60,541 nt of DNA, taken from an uncultured Chlorobiales bacterium. Its GTDB lineage: Bacteria; Bacteroidota; Chlorobiia; Chlorobiales; Thermochlorobacteraceae. Location: contig CALKXI010000053.1 of the NCBI GenBank assembly GCA_938003965.1, positions 1 to 60,541 of the forward strand. Reading direction: 5' to 3'. How positions within the stretch are numbered: position 1 is the stretch's first letter; every line of letters starts with the position of its first letter. The notes beneath the pieces were generated by a model. The model saw only the letters and a program-made list of their open reading frames with translations. It was not told where the DNA came from and did not search any database. Shown one piece after another: positions 4,916 to 59,318 of the stretch. The position numbers were made by a program, and so were the translations under genes.

Positions 4916-5341
4916 TTACGCATTGACTACTTCGCCGTGCGGTTTGAGTGCCGATTGAACGCGCTTGTATTCCGTAATGTCGGCAATCGCGGTTACTTTG
5001 CACTTCATTCCATCTTTGACCATCAAGGTTGGCACAACATAAACATTTCGCAGTTCGCCATTCTTACGCACCACGACCCATTCAGCAGGCATTTCGGGCG
5101 CGCCAGCCATAAACGCATCGTGAATGCGAGTGGCTTCAGCGCGATAATGCTCGGGCACAACCATTGAAAAATGCTTGCCAATCAACTCCTCGCGGGTGTA
5201 GCCGTAAAGGTTGAGATAGGCATCATTGACCTCCACATAGTTGCCGTGTTCGTCCGTAACGCAAATCGCCATGCCCATATTTTCAAAAATGGCGGCGCGG
5301 AATTTTTCTTCTGTCGGAAATTCAAATTTGTTCTTGCTCAT
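4916..5341 (-). CDS. stand-alone PAS domain protein
   Basis: 141 aa. Typical PAS S-box run (AIFENMGMAICVTDEHGNYVEVNDAYLNLYGYTREELIGKHFS...). No output domain. Confidence 0.75.
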   Translation of the reverse strand: MSKNKFEFPTEEKFRAAIFENMGMAICVTDEHGNYVEVNDAYLNLYGYTREELIGKHFSMVVPEHYRAEATRIHDAFMAGAPEMPAEWVVVRKNGELRNVYVVPTLMVKDGMKCKVTAIADITEYKRVQSALKPHGEVVNA

Positions 5342-5510
5342 CTTGAATGCCTCCTAATCGTTAGGTGTGTAAATGACGTGTATTGTATAATTTTGAAGTT
5401 AAATTGTCAAAAAAGTTACACATCGCCGGTCATTTTCGCAACGATGATGCGTTTTCTTAGATGCCTTAACAAGCGTCAATAAGCGTGCCGAAGTATTCCG
5501 AAAAGTATCG

Positions 5511-5543
5511 AAAAAAAAGACTCGGCTGCCCTATAGCCGAGTC
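5511..5543 (-). terminator. strong intrinsic terminator about 175 nt downstream of pyrD
   Basis: Perfect 9-bp stem GACTCGGCT (5519-5527) / AGCCGAGTC (5535-5543) with a 7-nt loop. On the minus strand it is followed by eight T (complement of A8 at 5511-5518). Confidence 0.8.
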
Positions 5544-5717
5544 CCTCTATCAACAAAACAACAAAGGAGGCTCTGATAAGCAGGGATCAGAGTCTTTGGT
5601 GTGAGAAAGAACAAATTGTACCTGAACTGATGCAAATATACGGTAGCCGCTAAGCAGAGTTTCATTAACAGGGTGTAAAATTTCTTTCTCACTACGAATC
5701 TTCATCAATCTGTAAAG

Positions 5718-6656
5718 TTAAATTTCAAGCGACCCGATAAAATTTTTGAAAGCAACACCATTTTCGGTAGAAAAATAATGCTCAATTTGTTCGGCAAGGG
5801 TTGCGCCAATGTTCGGCGAGACGAAATTCATCGTTCCAACTTGCACAGCACTTGCCCCAACGAGAAAAAATTCCATCGCGTCCTCGAAATTGGTGATGCC
5901 GCCCATGCCGACAATCGGAATTTTAACGGCGTTATAGACTTCCCAAACCTTCGCAAGCGCAATCGGCTTAATGGCAGGACCGGAAAGCCCGCCCGTTACA
6001 TTTTTCAGCAAGGGTTTGCGCGTTTTGTAATTGACTGCCATTCCAACAACCGTGTTAATCAGTGAAACGGAATCTGCGCCGCCGCGCTCTGCCGCAAGGG
6101 CAATCGTAGCAATAGAGGTTACATTCGGCGTGAGTTTTATCATCAAATGCCGATTCGTGCATTTTCGAAGTTCGCTTGTGATTTCAAATGTGGCGCGCTC
6201 ATCGACGCCGAAAATGATGCACTCGCCTTTCACATTCGGACAAGAAAGATTGATTTCATAGCCGCTAATGCCTTCCACATCTTCCAAGCGACGCACGACC
6301 TCGCAATAGTCATCAACAGACTTACCCACAATGTTGACAACGGTGTGAAATTGTTGCGCACGCAAGAATGGCATTTTTTCCTCGATGAATTTTTCAACGC
6401 CGACATTGGCAAGCCCAATCGCGTTGAGCATTCCTGCTGGTGTTTCAACAATGCGTTGCGGCAAATTGCCTTCGCGCACCTCGAGCGAAATGGCTTTGGT
6501 AACAATCCCACCAAGTTTGGAAAGGTCAGTGAGTTTGGAGAGTTCTTCGCCGTAAGAGACCGTTCCGCTTGCAAGCAGAACAGGATTTTTGAGGTCAAGT
6601 CCGCGCCCCAGCGAAATGGACGCAGGGCGAATTTCGGTGAGTTGCGTCGTCAGCAT
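5718..6656 (-). CDS. pyrD: dihydroorotate dehydrogenase (class 1, catalytic subunit)
   Basis: 312 aa. Motifs LLASGTVSYG, NLSCPNVKG, GGLSGPAIKPIAL, GMGGI. Confidence 0.9.
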   Translation of the reverse strand: MLTTQLTEIRPASISLGRGLDLKNPVLLASGTVSYGEELSKLTDLSKLGGIVTKAISLEVREGNLPQRIVETPAGMLNAIGLANVGVEKFIEEKMPFLRAQQFHTVVNIVGKSVDDYCEVVRRLEDVEGISGYEINLSCPNVKGECIIFGVDERATFEITSELRKCTNRHLMIKLTPNVTSIATIALAAERGGADSVSLINTVVGMAVNYKTRKPLLKNVTGGLSGPAIKPIALAKVWEVYNAVKIPIVGMGGITNFEDAMEFFLVGASAVQVGTMNFVSPNIGATLAEQIEHYFSTENGVAFKNFIGSLEI

Positions 6657-52146: not shown

Positions 52147-53361
52147 ATGATGAAACACTTTACCCACATTTCAGGTGCGATTTGCGCGCCCAAAGGCTTC
52201 AAGGCAAGTGCTGTGCAAGTGCCCATTCGCAAACTCAAAAAAGACCTTGCGCTCATTTATTCCGAAACGCCTGCAACTGTGGCGGGCGTCTTCACGCGCA
52301 ATCGCGCCGCCGCCGCGCCGATTGAAGTCTGTAAGGCGCAACTCAAAAGAAGCACAACTTGCTCGGCGATTATTGTCAATTCGGGCAACGCCAACGCATG
52401 CACGGGCGAAAAAGGCTTACAAGATGCATGGGCAATGGTGCGCAAGACGGCTGAATCGCTCGGCGTGCCTGAATCGCAAGTGATGGTTGCTTCTACGGGC
52501 GTGATTGGTCAGCCCTTGCCGATTGAGAGCATCTTGGCAGTGATTCCGCGCCTTGCGCTCTTGCTTTCAGAAAACGGCGCAAGCGATGTGGCTGAAGCGA
52601 TTATGACCACAGACCTTGCCAAAAAAGAATGTGCGATTGAATTCGAATTGGGCGGAAAACTTGTTCGCATTGGCGCGGTCGCCAAAGGCTCGGGCATGAT
52701 TGCGCCAAACATGGCAACGATGCTTGCCTTCGTTACAACCGATGTCGCCATTTCGCAACCGTTGCTTCAACAAGCGTTGAGCATGGCGAATCAAAAGTCG
52801 TTCAACCGAATCAGCGTCGATGGCGACGAAAGCACCAACGATATGGCAATGGTGCTCGCAAATGGTCGTGCAGGCAACGCCATGATTGCCGAAAACAGCA
52901 GTGAATACAAGCAGTTTCAAAGTGCTTTGGAATATGTGCTGACGGAACTTGCTAAAATGATTGTGCGCGACGGCGAAGGCGCAACGAAGTTTGTTGAAAT
53001 TACCGTCTGCGGCGCACGCACCGAACACGATGCCGAAGTGATGGCGCGAACCGTTGCCAATTCAAGTCTCGTCAAAACTGCACTGCACGGCGAAGACGCC
53101 AACTGGGGCAGAATTCTCGCCGCGCTTGGCTACTCGCGCATTGACTTCCTTCCTGAAAAAGTCGAAATCAAGTTCGGCGATGTGCCCATTCTCAATCAAA
53201 ATTTTGAAATCGTTTTAGATGAAGCCAAAGCCAAAGCCGAACTCTCAAAGCACGATGTGCGTGTCAATATCAACTTGAACTTAGGAAATGCCTCTGCCAC
53301 ATTTTGGACGTGCGACCTTTCAGAAAAATATGTGGAAATCAACGGCAGTTACCGCTCGTGA
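52147..53361 (+). CDS. argJ: bifunctional ornithine acetyltransferase / N-acetylglutamate synthase
   Basis: 404 aa. KGFKA..., NSGNANACTG, autoprocessing region PNMATMLAFVTTD, C-terminal INGSYRS. Confidence 0.9.
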   Translation: MMKHFTHISGAICAPKGFKASAVQVPIRKLKKDLALIYSETPATVAGVFTRNRAAAAPIEVCKAQLKRSTTCSAIIVNSGNANACTGEKGLQDAWAMVRKTAESLGVPESQVMVASTGVIGQPLPIESILAVIPRLALLLSENGASDVAEAIMTTDLAKKECAIEFELGGKLVRIGAVAKGSGMIAPNMATMLAFVTTDVAISQPLLQQALSMANQKSFNRISVDGDESTNDMAMVLANGRAGNAMIAENSSEYKQFQSALEYVLTELAKMIVRDGEGATKFVEITVCGARTEHDAEVMARTVANSSLVKTALHGEDANWGRILAALGYSRIDFLPEKVEIKFGDVPILNQNFEIVLDEAKAKAELSKHDVRVNINLNLGNASATFWTCDLSEKYVEINGSYRS

Positions 53362-53436
53362 AAGTTGCCTTAATTTTTAAGCAAAACCGTTTGCCTCGCC
53401 GTCAAAATTAAGCCTCATCAAAAGATTTTCGGGGAA

Positions 53437-53494
53437 TTGCAAAAAAATTTTATGCAAACTCTTGCATAATTATGCAACAACGTGCATAATTGCA
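53437..53494. promoter_or_regulatory. cluster of TGCA-core palindromes, candidate tandem ARG boxes (ArgR operator)
   Basis: TGCA cores start at 53438, 53453, 53463, 53473, 53483 and 53491, mostly 10 bp apart. TGCATAATTATGCA (53463-53476) is a perfect 14-bp palindrome. TATGCAA-ACTC-TTGCATA (53451-53468) and TTATGCA-ACAACG-TGCATAA (53470-53489) have perfect 7-bp arms. Confidence 0.55.
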
Positions 53495-53522
53495 TTGTAA
53501 CAAATTTTGAATGTGTTCAAAG

Positions 53523-53548
53523 TCCGATGTTCGTTCATCGGGCTTTTT
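53523..53548 (+). terminator. terminator-like hairpin between the candidate operator and the GNAT gene
   Basis: Stem CCGATG (53524-53529) / CATCGG (53536-53541) with a 6-nt loop, then C plus TTTTT (53544-53548). The stem is short, so its function is uncertain. Confidence 0.35.
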
Positions 53549-53595
53549 CTTTCTGTAAAAATCTGTCTGTAAAAAACCGTTCAACCGAATTACAA

Positions 53596-54093
53596 ATGCA
53601 AACAGAATATCTCGTCAGCACAGAAAAATCACTGCTCGACCTTGATGTGATTCACGGGTTTCTGACAAACTGCCATTGGGCGAAGGGCATTTCGCGCGAA
53701 CTCGTCGAGAAGTCGATTCAACATTCACTTTGCTTCGGCGTGTATGAAGTGGCGCAAGGGGTGAGAAAGCAGATTGGCTTTGCGCGTGTGATTTCGGACT
53801 TTGCCACATTTGCCTATCTCTCCGATGTCTTTGTGCTCGAATCGCATCGTGGCAACGATTTATCCAAACGCTTGCTCTCTGAAATTATGAAGCACCCTGA
53901 CCTGCAAGGGCTTCGCCGCTGGATGCTCGTTACAACCAATGCGCACGGGCTTTACGAACAATTTGGATTTTCTGCGCCGCATAACCCTGAAAAGATTATG
54001 GAAATTTTCGTGCCGAACCTTTACGAAAAACAAGCAGAGTTGCTTGGCTCACTTGAGTCTGCACAAAACTTAAACGCGCTCGTTTCTCAATGA
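53596..54093 (+). CDS. GNAT-family acetyltransferase embedded in the arg operon
   Basis: Start moved to ATG 53596 (165 aa, MQTEYLVS...). GNAT core (VFVLESHRGNDLSKRLL...HGLYEQFGF). The stop overlaps the argB ATG (ATGA at 54090-54093). Confidence 0.7.
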   Translation: MQTEYLVSTEKSLLDLDVIHGFLTNCHWAKGISRELVEKSIQHSLCFGVYEVAQGVRKQIGFARVISDFATFAYLSDVFVLESHRGNDLSKRLLSEIMKHPDLQGLRRWMLVTTNAHGLYEQFGFSAPHNPEKIMEIFVPNLYEKQAELLGSLESAQNLNALVSQ

Positions 54094-56044: not shown

Positions 56045-56500
56045 ATGGGAAAAGCAGAACGTCAGTTAGCCATTAAGGAGATTATCACGACAAAAGAAAT
56101 TGCAAGTCAAGAAGAACTTGCCAAAGAACTTTTGCGCAAGGGCTTTGAGGTCAATCAAGCCACGCTTTCGCGCGACATGAAAGAACTCGGCATCGCCAAA
56201 GTGATTACCGCCGACGGCGTTTGGTATGAACTTCAAACCGACAACGAAGCGCAACGCTTGAAAATGCTTCTCTCTTACGAGATTGAGTCCATTCAATCGA
56301 ACGATTGCATGGTCATCATCAAAACGCTTCGTGGCAGAGCGTCAGGCGTTGCCGAAATTCTCGACCAACTCGCGCTACCCGACATTCTCGGCACGATTGC
56401 AGGCGACGATACGATTTTCATCGCGCCGACTTCTTCAAAGAAAATTCCGACCATTATCAAACGCATTAAAGAGGCGGTGCTTCAAACGGAGGAAAAGTGA
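56045..56500 (+). CDS. argR: arginine repressor
   Basis: Start set at ATG 56045 (151 aa). Winged-helix N-terminus (QEELAKELLRKGFEVNQATLSRDMKELG) and C-terminal GTIAGDDTIFI. The track start at 55961 adds a hydrophobic extension that is not ArgR-like. Confidence 0.85.
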   Translation: MGKAERQLAIKEIITTKEIASQEELAKELLRKGFEVNQATLSRDMKELGIAKVITADGVWYELQTDNEAQRLKMLLSYEIESIQSNDCMVIIKTLRGRASGVAEILDQLALPDILGTIAGDDTIFIAPTSSKKIPTIIKRIKEAVLQTEEK

Positions 56501-56631
56501 GTCAATATCGCGACCGAATTACGCTTAACCCGAATGTTGTGTGCAATGGTAAAAAGACACCAAAACAACAAGCAACCCAACAAAAAAGAGTAAATTTGAA
56601 CTTTATAAAATAACATTAGCAAGAAAATATA

Positions 56632-57146
56632 ATGATACTTTGGAATAACGACACTGAAATACAATTTTTTACAGAAGCATTAAAGAATTTTGCTTCGCCC
56701 GAACAATTATTTTACAATTTGCAGGGTGGATATTTTGCATATGTTCCAAAGGGTTCAGACGCTAAAGGGCAAACCTTACAAAGCAGAAATTCACTTATTG
56801 GACAGTTCACAGAAAAATGGTGTAAAACACTATTTTTGAGCCAATAGCGAAAGAATTAGGATTATATGCTGTAAATGGTGTTATTAGTTTCCAAATAATT
56901 TTAGATAAATATCAACTCTTTAACAATTGCAAAGAACTTGTGACCAATGATATGAATTACTTTTCTTCAATGATTTCCAAATTGAAACTTGGAGAAATTA
57001 TAAGAATTGCCAGACAAGAAACCACAGACATTGCAAAAGCAGAAAAATGTTTTAGACTTGTGGGCGTTTCCCTTTCGGGTCGGGCTATCCGTTACAAGTA
57101 CTCGCTTTTGACTTTTATCCCTAATACAGTAAAAAATGAAGCATAG
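56632..57146 (+). pseudogene. frameshifted ORF of unknown family (two fragments, 56632-56847 and 56826/56940-57146)
   Basis: Frame 1 stops at TAG 56845-56847. Frame 0 is open from 56826 to 57146. The frames meet at a T5 run (56833-56837); a T6 run would read ...FTEKWCKTLFFEPIAKELGLYAVNGV... as one ORF of about 170 aa. Confidence 0.5.
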
Positions 57147-57345
57147 TATGGAAAATAAGAATTTTGAAGTTAAAATCTACTATACAGGATTTTGCACTTA
57201 CATTATTGAAGCACAAGATGCTTCAGAAGCAATTTTAAAGGCAAGAAACCTTCCGGTTAATCATAATGAAATTTTATCCAATTTGGAAAATTGGGAAGAC
57301 GCAGACACAGCAGCAGAAATAAAAGATGAAGAAAGTAAAATCTAA
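57136..57345 (+). CDS. small acidic hypothetical protein
   Basis: 69 aa with an acidic tail (ENWEDADTAAEIKDEESKI). Overlaps the end of the broken ORF by 11 nt and the HNH gene start by 20 nt. No recognisable motif. Confidence 0.35.
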   Translation: MKHSMENKNFEVKIYYTGFCTYIIEAQDASEAILKARNLPVNHNEILSNLENWEDADTAAEIKDEESKI

Positions 57346-58165
57346 TTTGCCATTAAACTACATTACCATCAAAACTACCAAAAGCCGTATAGAAAAAGGC
57401 TTATTAGCAATTCCTGTTTCGTTAATTGATTTGTTTCCAAAAACAGGTAATAAAATCTTTTTAGTTAACCAAAATGGAGTAGTAGAAGAAAAATCATTTA
57501 CACCATATAAAAGCAGTAGTCGTGAATGTAGGATAGGCGGATTAAGTTCTTTTTACAAGAATTATCAAATTTCAGATAAAGAAGAATTAGTTATTCAAAT
57601 TATAGATGAAAACAAGTTTAAAATTATGCCAGAGAGAGTATTTAAGGAAAAAATTAAGAATGTTTTGTCTGAGTTTGAAAATTGCAAAGATGAAACTCAG
57701 GGAGAAAATATTTTATCTAAGATTACAGAAATTACAAATCTTTCCAAGATTGAAGTTTTAAAAAATGAATATGTAATGCTTTCAAAAACCAAAATGGAAC
57801 TTAGAAAGAAGATTGAAAAAAGTGCAACTTTAGTTAAAGAAACAGTTCCGTATTATATTCGTAGAATATTACTTGAACTATACAAAGGAAAATGTCAGCT
57901 TACAAATTTTACATTCCTTACGAAGAGTGGTAATCCTTATTTTGAGTTGCACCATATTGACCCAAACAAAGGCAATCACATAAAAAACTTACTTGTTGTT
58001 AGTCCGAATATACACGCTCAATTTACTCACGCAAATAAAGAAGAATTTTTTGACGAAGAAGGTTGGTTAAGAAAAGTTAAATTCAATCAAGACCAATATT
58101 TCGTCAATCAAATTATTGATAAACTACCAAAAGAGTTTGAAAAAGAAGTACATTATGAATTTTAG
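57326..58165 (+). CDS. HNH-motif nuclease with B3/EcoRII-N-like N-terminal domain (putative restriction endonuclease)
   Basis: 279 aa. C-terminal GKCQLTNFTF...PYFELHHIDPNKGNHIKNLLVVSPNIHAQFTH is an HNH beta-beta-alpha-metal pattern. The N-terminal ~95 aa (LAIPVSLIDLFPKTGNKIFLVNQNGVVEEKSFTPY...RIGGLSSFYKNYQISDKEELVI) follow the B3 pseudobarrel spacing. Lies immediately upstream of a DNA methyltransferase. Confidence 0.65.
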   Translation: MKKVKSNLPLNYITIKTTKSRIEKGLLAIPVSLIDLFPKTGNKIFLVNQNGVVEEKSFTPYKSSSRECRIGGLSSFYKNYQISDKEELVIQIIDENKFKIMPERVFKEKIKNVLSEFENCKDETQGENILSKITEITNLSKIEVLKNEYVMLSKTKMELRKKIEKSATLVKETVPYYIRRILLELYKGKCQLTNFTFLTKSGNPYFELHHIDPNKGNHIKNLLVVSPNIHAQFTHANKEEFFDEEGWLRKVKFNQDQYFVNQIIDKLPKEFEKEVHYEF

Positions 58166-58177
58166 ACATAAAAAGAG

Positions 58178-58903
58178 TTGCCTGACAACTCAGTTCATTT
58201 AATGATCACTTCACCGCCTTACAATGTTTCAAAAGAGTACGACGAAGATTTATCACTAAAAGAGTATTTACAACTTTTAGAAAATTCATTTAAAGAAACA
58301 TTTAGAGTTTTAGTAAATGGTGGTCGGGCTTGCATAAATGTAGCAAATCTTGGCAGGAAACCGTACATACCACTTTCAGACTATATTTCTAAAATGATGA
58401 TAGACATTGGCTTTAATATGCGTGGCGAAATCATTTGGAATAAGGCAGCAAGTGCAAGTCCTTCAACAGCTTGGGGTAGTTGGCAGAGTGCCGCTAATCC
58501 AATTTTAAGAGATATACACGAATATATTTTAGTTTTTTCAAAAGGTGATTACAAAAGAGAAAAAGGAAAAAAAGAAAATTCCATAACAAAAGAACAGTTT
58601 ATGGAGTGGACAAAATCTATATGGACAATGAACGCAGAAAGTGCAAAAAGAATTGGTCACCCTGCACCTTTTCCCGAAGAACTTCCTTTTAGACTCATTC
58701 AACTTTATTCGTTTAAAGGCGATATTATCCTTGACCCTTTTATGGGTAGTGGGACAACAGCAGTCGCTGCCATAAAATCAGAAAGAAAATTTGTGGGTTA
58801 CGACATTTCGCAAGAATATATTGACTTAGCAGAAAAAAGACTGAAACCATTTTTAGAACAGACAACTATAAAATTTGCGACTTTGGGTAATGATAAAGAA
58901 TAG
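58178..58903 (+). CDS. beta-class DNA methyltransferase, SPPY motif IV (N4-cytosine type likely)
   Basis: 241 aa. Motif IV TSPPY lies near the N-terminus and motif I DPFMGSGTT near the C-terminus (beta-class order), plus HPAPFPEELP. It begins at TTG only 10 codons before SPPY, so the N-terminus looks truncated or frameshifted. Confidence 0.8.
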   Translation: MPDNSVHLMITSPPYNVSKEYDEDLSLKEYLQLLENSFKETFRVLVNGGRACINVANLGRKPYIPLSDYISKMMIDIGFNMRGEIIWNKAASASPSTAWGSWQSAANPILRDIHEYILVFSKGDYKREKGKKENSITKEQFMEWTKSIWTMNAESAKRIGHPAPFPEELPFRLIQLYSFKGDIILDPFMGSGTTAVAAIKSERKFVGYDISQEYIDLAEKRLKPFLEQTTIKFATLGNDKE

Positions 58904-59001
58904 AACACTGCACACAACAGCAGCTTTGCATAATGGCGGGTTCAGTGCTTCGTATGACAGTTTTGTGGTTGGTTCAAGTACAGTGCTTCGTTTGAACTTT
59001 T

Positions 59002-59214
59002 GTGCTAAAAATCCGCCCCTACGCCAAGCCGCAAACCGTTATGAACGGCAAACCAACGATTCGCAATATGCGCTTCAGCGTTGCTGATGTTTTAGCATTA
59101 CTTGTCTCAGGAATGACCATTGATGAAATCCTTTCAGACTACCCTTACTTAGAGCGAGAAGATATCCTCGCCTGTTTGGAATACGCTTCGGCAGTTGCGA
59201 ACATCAATAATTGA
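59002..59214 (+). CDS. DUF433-family protein (antitoxin-like), orphan
   Basis: 70 aa from GTG 59002 (or 57 aa from ATG 59041). NGKPTIRNMRFSVADVLALLVSGMTIDEILSDYPYLEREDILACLEYA matches the DUF433 pattern (GKP.IrgTRi.V..il..l..G.s.eeIl..YP.Lt.edI.aal.YA). Confidence 0.65.
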   Translation: MLKIRPYAKPQTVMNGKPTIRNMRFSVADVLALLVSGMTIDEILSDYPYLEREDILACLEYASAVANINN

Positions 59215-59318
59215 CAAAAGTTGGCTTCTGATTCAACAAAAATTTCACGACGAGAAAGCCTCATTTATCGTTCTTGAACAATCTTCATTAACCGCGTTTT
59301 AACTTATCTCATCCTGCA

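Follow-up and report, generated by a model that had tools for sequence, protein, structure and literature searches.

An integron-type cassette with decaying restriction-modification cargo, probably inserted in an antitoxin gene between argR and argG of a Chlorobi-type bacterium

Chlorobi and Ignavibacteriae are known to carry integrons (PMC9024848), which have been called 'biobanks' of anti-phage cassettes (PMC12614218). Insertion of cassettes at 5′GWT3′ genomic sites, which results in single attC sites without an integrase (SALINs), has also been described (10.1101/2022.09.11.507474). Here, we analyzed a 60.5-kb stretch of DNA (the window: 60,541 nt, contig CALKXI010000053.1 of assembly GCA_938003965.1, from an uncultured Chlorobiales bacterium), in which a block of AT-rich DNA carrying restriction-modification genes lies between the arginine biosynthesis genes argR and argG. 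Very probably, this block is a single integron-type gene cassette inserted in a DUF433 antitoxin gene, a lone element with a decaying restriction-modification cargo. We see in it a hitch-hiker undergoing decay, as opposed to a functional defence island of several genes. Other loci compared with the window are cited by our locus numbers (L001 onwards).

The locus shares with SALINs a single attC without a nearby integrase, located at the 3′ end of the cassette, and a G|TT junction fitting 5′GWT3′. As in SALINs, insertion took place in a non-essential gene and empty sites are documented in relatives. It differs in its host lineage (Chlorobi-type, from metagenomes), in the four-gene, 2.5-kb content of the cassette, in being known from sequence alone, and in that copies of the cassette in other loci adjoin a recombinase devoid of the IntI-specific insertion. 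As in described defence-gene integron cassettes, a restriction-modification system forms one attC-bounded cassette that is found in arrays; the copy of the window, in contrast, is not part of an array and carries a dead restriction gene.

Borders of the AT-rich block and the interrupted gene

G+C content was computed in 500-nt windows. The block has a mean of 0.316 (range 0.266-0.368), against 0.484 ± 0.027 and a minimum of 0.380 for the remaining window. Third-codon G+C is 0.22-0.26 in the three intact island genes versus 0.52-0.60 in argC, argJ, argB, argF, argR and argG. Both measures bear out the AT-rich composition noticed in a first-pass annotation, made from the sequence alone, which had proposed a recently acquired defence island at 56501-59318. 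The five same-strand open reading frames (ORFs) that it listed are all present on the + strand, and the block does lie inside the string of arg genes, co-directional with them. Features of the block and of its edges are given below.

56497-56538, + strand: first 14 codons of the DUF433 gene, with a GTG start that shares bases with the argR stop; the cassette severs this piece from the remaining gene
56539-59040, + strand: probable integron-type gene cassette, absent from L090, L091/L092 and L093
56539-56631, + strand: cassette leader, kept upstream of the restriction gene (R); its identity to the L006 reference cassette is 87%, starting at position 1
56632-57146, + strand: R pseudogene, putative PD-(D/E)xK, defined by comparison with the intact R of L175; it appears as a broken ORF, 56632-56847 and 56940-57146
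57055-57129: G+C-rich element (~60 nt) within the 3′ end of R; weak Flavo-1-like RNA match on the minus strand
57136/57148-57345, + strand: small acidic ORF of 65 aa, or 69 aa with the alternative ATG at 57136
57326-58165, + strand: HNH ORF (predicted B3-HNH nuclease), 279 aa, intact
58178-58903, + strand: SPPY N6_N4 methyltransferase (M), short form, ATG gone
58904-59040, + strand: attC-like site of 137 nt, found by profile search, with a covarying stem
59002/59041-59214, + strand: DUF433 ORF; the DUF433 remainder proper runs from Met15 (59041-59214), is 98% identical to L090 and has a C-terminus changed by the adjoining deletion
59223-59302, + strand: remnant of a DUF5615 toxin gene (last 80 nt; the remaining 302 nt are deleted)

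Pfam matches in the window comprise ArgR, a GNAT protein, N6_N4 methyltransferase (1e-49) and DUF433 (1e-21). The sole other low-G+C stretch (window ~5301-5800, G+C 0.38) is far milder than the island.

Going by the source names of its ArgR homologs, the window belongs to Chlorobiales / Chloroherpetonaceae; an exact look-up of its ArgF protein gave no record. Closer relatives were found via ArgR homologs and their contigs; the flank figures below are nucleotide identities to the window.

L088: flanks ~99%, block 99.8% identical; argR-argG interval with the same block, in an independent assembly
L089: flanks ~99%; same block, the contig stopping 266 nt into it
L090: flanks 97-98%; argR-DUF433 (76 aa)-DUF5615 (118 aa)-argG, without the AT-rich block
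L091/L092: flanks 93-95%; empty argR-argG spacer of 44 nt
L093: flanks 91-92%; empty argR-argG spacer of 47 nt
L008, the nearest species representative in the genome collection: ArgR 54% identical; argC-J-B-F-R-G with an argR-argG gap of ~38 nt

With an ArgR merely 54% identical, L008 was used for distant synteny only. Among the close relatives, the spacer thus exists in three states: empty (44-47 nt), filled with a DUF433-DUF5615 pair, or filled with that pair plus the cassette. Since the block is absent from L090, in spite of flanks 97-98% identical, and from L091/L092 and L093, it is a recent, lineage-specific insertion. The same genes at the same place were met only in L088 and L089, whose flanks are ~99% identical to the window. 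These comparisons support the earlier proposal of a foreign and recent acquisition.

Comparison with L090 defined the borders. The window follows L090 base for base from argR through ...CCCGAATGTT (56538), diverges, and rejoins it at ATGAACGGC... (59041). The foreign DNA therefore spans 56539-59040 (2,502 bp, G+C 0.325) and separates codon 14 of the DUF433 gene from codon 15, the insertion point being G|TT. The uninterrupted target in L090 reads CCCGAATG|TTATGAAC and fits the 5′GWT3′ consensus. Because GTT is present at both window junctions, the position of the border is uncertain by at most 3 nt. Of the interval first taken as the island, the part from 56539 to 59040 stands as foreign, whereas the flanking segments (56497-56538 and 59041-59302) turn out to be pieces of the DUF433-DUF5615 pair. 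It follows that the cassette did not split argR from argG directly, as had been assumed, but hit an antitoxin gene already present in the spacer. The 9-bp sequence CAACAAAAA, put forward earlier as a candidate border repeat, does not mark the ends: the right copy belongs to the DUF5615 remnant, whereas the true borders are at 56538/56539 and 59040/59041.

Two-gene DUF433-DUF5615 (PIN/Mut7-C-like) modules are regarded as toxin-antitoxin pairs. In the argR-argG spacer of L090 both genes are intact and 3 nt apart; the DUF433 protein is matched over the whole Pfam model and the DUF5615 protein at 1e-26 (DUF5615/Mut7-C/PIN-like). The pair is not intact in the window. There, DUF433 is split and its remnant matches the Pfam model only over positions 8-56, while L090 1414-1715 (302 nt, most of the DUF5615 gene) is missing and homology resumes at 59223. 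Fifteen bases (TAATTGACAAAAGTT, 59208-59222) are found at the joint of this deletion, and the C-terminus of DUF433 changes from ...NIKSFTPMS to ...NINN. As the spacer states described above show, the pair itself is a lineage-specific filler. Splitting of the antitoxin gene would be linked with loss of the toxin gene.

Cassette ends, attC-like site and recombinase

The same unit was found in other genomes, and its ends coincide with the borders observed here. In L003, L005, L006, L007 and the window, it opens with the same start after GTT, GTT|GTGTGCAATGGTAAAAAGACACC (GTT|GTGTGCAATGG), and the upstream DNA differs each time. L175 carries a close variant of this start, GTT|GTGTGCTATGGTAAAAAGGATACC (also given as ...GTT|GTGTGCTATGG), in an unrelated context. 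At the other end, the L004-L007 copies finish with ...AAACGTT| or ...AACCGTT|, before differing downstream DNA. The last 137 nt of the insert open with an R'' sequence, TGCACACAAC, which is the reverse complement of the cassette start GTTGTGTGCA, and end in the window with ...CAAACCGTT. This R''...R' layout is that of an attC site, with the crossover at G|TT. Within the leader, positions 56592-56599 (~33 nt upstream of the R start) read TAAATTTG, which fits the Bacteroidetes -7 promoter motif TAnnTTTG; L001-type leaders show TATCTTTG there.

A simple pattern scan for attC missed a known site and gave chance-level matches. It was dropped in favour of a profile search, using a profile built from five attC-like sites, the window's own included. 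This profile has a single match in the window (58904-59044, 99.7 bits). It also matches further sites, unused in profile building, in L006 and L007, which accordingly hold attC arrays. On its bottom strand, the window site is predicted to fold into two stems, R and a long L with bulged G residues, which an unpaired spacer separates. A stem that we specified over 9 sites has 74% of cells paired, compared to 34-50% in slid controls, with compensatory changes in 15 of its 23 pairs; the observed values were reached by none of 500 shuffles. Finally, an attC 95% identical over 109 nt lies directly behind an unrelated hypothetical gene on the 6.5-kb plasmid pYWS9-3-2 of Empedobacter falsenii, a cultured Flavobacteriales strain (L179, 3473-3612), and weaker copies are present on Adhaeribacter and Riemerella plasmids. 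The attC site and the G|TT borders are a mobility signature, which the first-pass annotation had not seen; its observation that tRNA genes are absent is confirmed (none in the window with ARAGORN).

Elsewhere, the same cassette sits in attC arrays beside an attI-like region and a tyrosine recombinase. The order in L006 is a minus-strand recombinase, an attI-like region of ~196 nt ending AAGACGTT|, the restriction-modification cassette in first position, then more attC sites. In L004 the restriction-modification cassette is second, and L007 has four attC sites. L004 and L006 share the ~196-nt region (AAGACGTT|) and carry different cassettes beyond it. The recombinase is as follows.

L004 1509-2351 and L006 3008-3850, - strand: 280-aa tyrosine recombinase, divergent from the attI-like region

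Both recombinases pass the NF040815 model (XerA/integron integrase) with 243-245 bits for a cutoff of 220, and their best PDB match is the archaeal XerA. Aligned with VchIntIA (2a3v), they match in two pieces, with ~22 residues where IntI4 has ~65. A XerA-like enzyme that lacks the IntI-specific domain may operate the arrays carrying the cassette. It is on account of this recombinase that we use 'integron-type' instead of 'integron'. By standard criteria, the L004 and L006 arrays would be labelled integrase-less.

In the window, tblastn with the L004/L006 recombinases gave no match, in a search that extended to no other integrase or transposase family. Together with the single attC profile match, this corresponds to the SALIN configuration within the 60.5 kb, and the cassette is considered a lone one because no relative of this recombinase is found with it. 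The insertion could be explained as follows: an integron-type tyrosine recombinase supplied in trans would join the folded attC of a circular cassette to a chromosomal secondary GWT ('attG'-type) site, and the outcome would be a lone cassette without a nearby integrase, i.e. a SALIN.

Several points weigh against an integron-type origin. The enzyme is inferred, no integrase having been seen in the 60-kb window in the search with the L004/L006 recombinases. These recombinases score 226-229 bits on TIGR02249, below its cutoff of 265, and lack most of the IntI-specific insertion; instead of canonical integrons, the L004/L006 arrays may be integron-like platforms. The GTT shared by the two junctions is only 3 nt long, which is expected often by chance. 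The folding energy of the window attC is not better than that of shuffled sequence (z = +0.66), whereas that of the L006 copy is (z = -2.6), so that the window site draws its support from comparison with related sites. All data, moreover, are metagenome assemblies. Weighing these points, we retain the integron-type cassette as the very probable explanation.

Restriction-modification genes and the B3-HNH nuclease

The plain form of the cargo is a two-gene unit, R (286 aa) followed directly by M (306 aa), found in five unrelated neighbourhoods (L003-L007). This R shares 93% identity with the intact counterpart of the window's broken ORF, and the R+M cassette, a very common one, is spread across Bacteroidota, Ignavibacteriota and Chlorobi-type genomes. 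The window carries a four-gene variant, also present in L001, L094, L105-L110 and L174-L176. In this variant, the last R codons and the first 63 M codons have given way to ~1 kb containing the acidic ORF (63-65 aa) and the nuclease gene (~277 aa). In L175, the four genes stand behind the close variant of the cassette start. This gene set, suspected in the first-pass annotation to be more than a plain type II pair, recurs in other genomes as a four-gene unit. With type II pairs that have a beta-class N4/N6 methyltransferase (closest solved structures: TTHA0409, 2zie; N4C, 8s9n/8s9m), the cassette shares the SPPY and FxGxG motifs, a match to the whole PF01555 model and, in intact copies, abutting genes with R first. 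It differs from them by an R without detectable relative, by an M devoid of its 63-aa extension in this variant and, here, by an R pseudogene.

Intact R homologs are 286-315 aa long, that of L175 having 315 aa. Compared with the latter, the window R has 2 additional nt at 56831-56832, which shift the frame, and lacks 423 nt at ~56877-56886 and 12 nt at 57106. The lost stretch includes three invariant residues, D97, E118 and K120, read as a putative PD-(D/E)xK motif. This reading rests on the motif, since R has no relative in Pfam, PADLOC or PDB; single-sequence and profile searches of these databases, NCBIfam and PHROGs gave nothing meaningful. With R frameshifted and its core missing, the window has no intact cognate restriction endonuclease.

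The G+C-rich element at 57055-57129 is present as a single copy in the window. It is absent from L001 and L003 and shared with L175, where it is translated within an intact R; for this reason, it was rejected as a product of R decay. Its only Rfam match, RF01705 (Flavo-1, minus strand), has 28.6 bits and is below the gathering score of 42; a group I or II intron or another known RNA was discarded, no other Rfam match being found.

M is a beta-class SPPY DNA methyltransferase matched by PF01555 over positions 1-221 of 221 (1e-49). It is 93-96% identical to 306-aa homologs in Bacteroidota, Ignavibacteriota and a Spirochaetes-labelled bin, and retains the SPPY and FxGxG (DPFMGSGTT) motifs, i.e. 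motif IV and the S-adenosylmethionine (AdoMet)-binding motif. The window M is the short form, without the 63-64-aa N-terminal extension. This extension is probably dispensable, as loci exist where R and the short M are both intact. Alignment with L001 and L003 shows that the three bases of the M ATG are absent, leaving TTG 58178 or ATG 58202 as possible starts. The missing N-terminus was not found elsewhere in the window by tblastn; the only similarity, a weak one, is that of the C-terminal tail of HNH to M residues 38-55. A perfect inverted repeat, GAGTTG-CCTGA-CAACTC (58175-58191, codons KELPDNS), is located at the HNH/M junction, at the start of the short M. At this junction (58163-58180), as in L001, a single reading frame is common to HNH and M.

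As R is without its catalytic core and M without its ATG, classical restriction-modification function is lost in this copy; the block is a decaying restriction-modification cassette and not the working defence cassette first proposed. In a Bacteroidales contig (L177, 6268-8453), a copy with truncated R and M is adjoined by a second, unrelated restriction-modification system, composed of a helix-turn-helix (HTH) protein, an N6_N4 methyltransferase and an EcoO109I-family endonuclease.

The remaining two genes are intact. The small acidic ORF overlaps the HNH gene by 20 nt and is kept upstream of it in many loci. The ratio of non-synonymous to synonymous divergence (dN/dS) is ~0.18 for the small ORF and 0.13-0.23 for HNH, synonymous divergence (dS) being near saturation for most pairs. 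The small ORF matches no family in Pfam, NCBIfam, PADLOC, PHROGs or PDB. Its single-sequence structural model, of low confidence (predicted local distance difference test, pLDDT, of 62) and too weak for a fold search, displays a beta-hairpin, two helices and a disordered tail.

B3-HNH has 466 homologs, mostly of ~277 aa, several of them listed with Pfam B3. In the AlphaFold model (pLDDT 94.4), the N-terminal 100 residues are predicted to adopt the B3 DNA-binding pseudobarrel fold. Foldseek matched this part with probability 1.00 to the B3 domains of TEM1, FUS3, NGA1 and VAL1 and to LlaJI.R1-N (target-normalised TM-score 0.5-0.66); BfiI-C is also among the matches. No Pfam HNH model reaches threshold in B3-HNH. 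The HNH region gives weak matches to the McrA of Escherichia coli (6ghc, E = 0.002), to IscB (NF040563, 1e-7, below cutoff) and to PADLOC mREase_IV (0.003). H209, H210, N221, N228 and H230 are invariant in 61 homologs and all present in the window protein. Sequence-reading B3-like domains are known from EcoRII, BfiI, NgoAVII, UbaLAI and LlaJI.R1 (PMC3973309, PMC4267654, PMC5766183). The 279-aa protein has the B3 fold in its N-terminal domain in common with EcoRII-N, BfiI-C, NgoAVII, UbaLAI and LlaJI.R1; it differs in that the partners in those enzymes are of PD-(D/E)xK, phospholipase-D or McrB type, whereas here the partner is a predicted HNH (beta-beta-alpha-Me) nuclease, and in that B3-HNH does not track an intact methyltransferase.

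The last point comes from a survey of 80 metagenome loci (L094-L173) plus L001 and L002, of which 52 have at least 700 nt downstream of HNH. The loci are the best full-length HNH matches, and the survey is for that reason biased toward intact HNH genes. Among the 52, the M beside HNH keeps SPPY in 17, is truncated past SPPY in 24 and is not detectable in 11, whereas the HNH frame is open in 51 and its motif intact in 45. R remnants mostly keep the gene start (residue 1) and M remnants always keep the gene end. In nearly all loci, the M remnant starts ~0-30 nt from the HNH stop, whatever its first residue (1 to 201). This pattern argues against a nuclease dependent on the adjacent M. It is compatible with a module of selfish, homing type or with an independent nuclease that selection maintains. 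Across metagenomes, the B3-HNH gene remains intact as R and M erode next to it, which points to a nuclease family outliving the restriction-modification genes that accompany it.

Free-standing homing endonuclease genes, e.g. the HNH-type mob genes of T-even phages, are among the systems closest to this one. The likeness concerns the allele pattern only: an HNH gene between two conserved genes, alleles with and without it, and replaced sequence around the insertion. The differences are that the junctions vary here and that the host element is an integron cassette and not a phage genome. We therefore considered, as a tentative explanation, that the small ORF and B3-HNH form a module, either selfish and of homing type or self-sufficient in another way, which entered the R/M junction and persists as its host genes erode. 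Indeed, cassettes with and without the module share flanks, ~200 nt of junction being replaced, and the remnants of R and M are arranged as described above, around a nuclease gene under purifying selection. Besides, the M of the window is nearer to that of a module-free cassette (dS 0.50 to L006) than to the M of L001 (dS 1.1). This explanation is weakened by several observations. Cleavage by B3-HNH is a prediction from its sequence; a viral fold search with its model gave no significant match, to phage homing endonucleases or otherwise. The bias of the survey and the near saturation of synonymous divergence also count against it. Finally, R is truncated in different ways within one clade sharing the right junction (L094 to L097), which implies secondary deletions and not repeated invasions. 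A more specific version, that the module colonises the R/M junction, removes its own target and persists under purifying selection while R and M are deleted from its edges outward, is likewise tentative. The module would then be a parasite of the mobile cassette. In the window, R was disabled by an internal deletion and not from the module edge.

Alternatively, B3-HNH could be the active restriction enzyme of the cassette, M protecting against it, so that a functional pair would subsist despite loss of the PD-(D/E)xK gene. The B3 reader domains of known restriction enzymes are in line with this idea, as are the organization of the window, where only 12 nt lie between HNH and M and both are open, and the 17 loci where M keeps SPPY. 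We nevertheless consider such a pair unlikely, since a nuclease that depends on M should not outlive it, barring a second M copy elsewhere in the genome, and M is truncated or not detectable in most of the 52 loci, the HNH motif being intact in 45.

Still less probable is a working multi-component defence island, restriction-modification plus an extra nuclease, that would protect the strain and drive transcription of argG. The HNH, small ORF and M frames are open with conserved residues, all genes are co-directional with argG, terminator-like sites in the stretch from M to argG do not exceed chance frequency, and the four-gene unit recurs elsewhere. All this is outweighed by the state of R, frameshifted and deprived of the 423 nt with its D...ExK core, and by the loss of the M ATG. 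In PADLOC, only a weak Type IV model matches HNH, and none matches R or the small ORF. Promoter and terminator scans gave matches at chance level, Chlorobi-type promoters being outside their coverage. A metagenome misassembly joining the DNA of an AT-rich organism to a Chlorobi-type contig, to which the sharp composition jump at both borders and the arrest of L089 within the block might point, is hardly credible, as the same junctions are found in the independent assembly L088, both lie within DUF433, whose two parts match L090 in order and frame, and the borders coincide with cassette ends in other genomes.

The arginine gene string and significance of the cassette

A GNAT acetyltransferase gene (window 53362-54093) lies between argJ and argB, preceded by a spacer of low G+C (0.38-0.40, ~53100-53700); it is present in the close relatives L091 and L093 and absent from the distant L008. 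As for the insertion itself, transcription of argG may now have to cross 2.5 kb of foreign DNA.

For annotation, these results mean that the restriction-modification system should be described as decayed and the DUF433 ORF as a split gene. The locus represents a natural, fully bracketed case of an integron-type cassette landing outside an integron, in a string of amino-acid biosynthesis genes, and it illustrates that an AT-rich island without an integrase can still bear a clear mobility signature. Any activity remaining in the block would come from the predicted B3-HNH nuclease.

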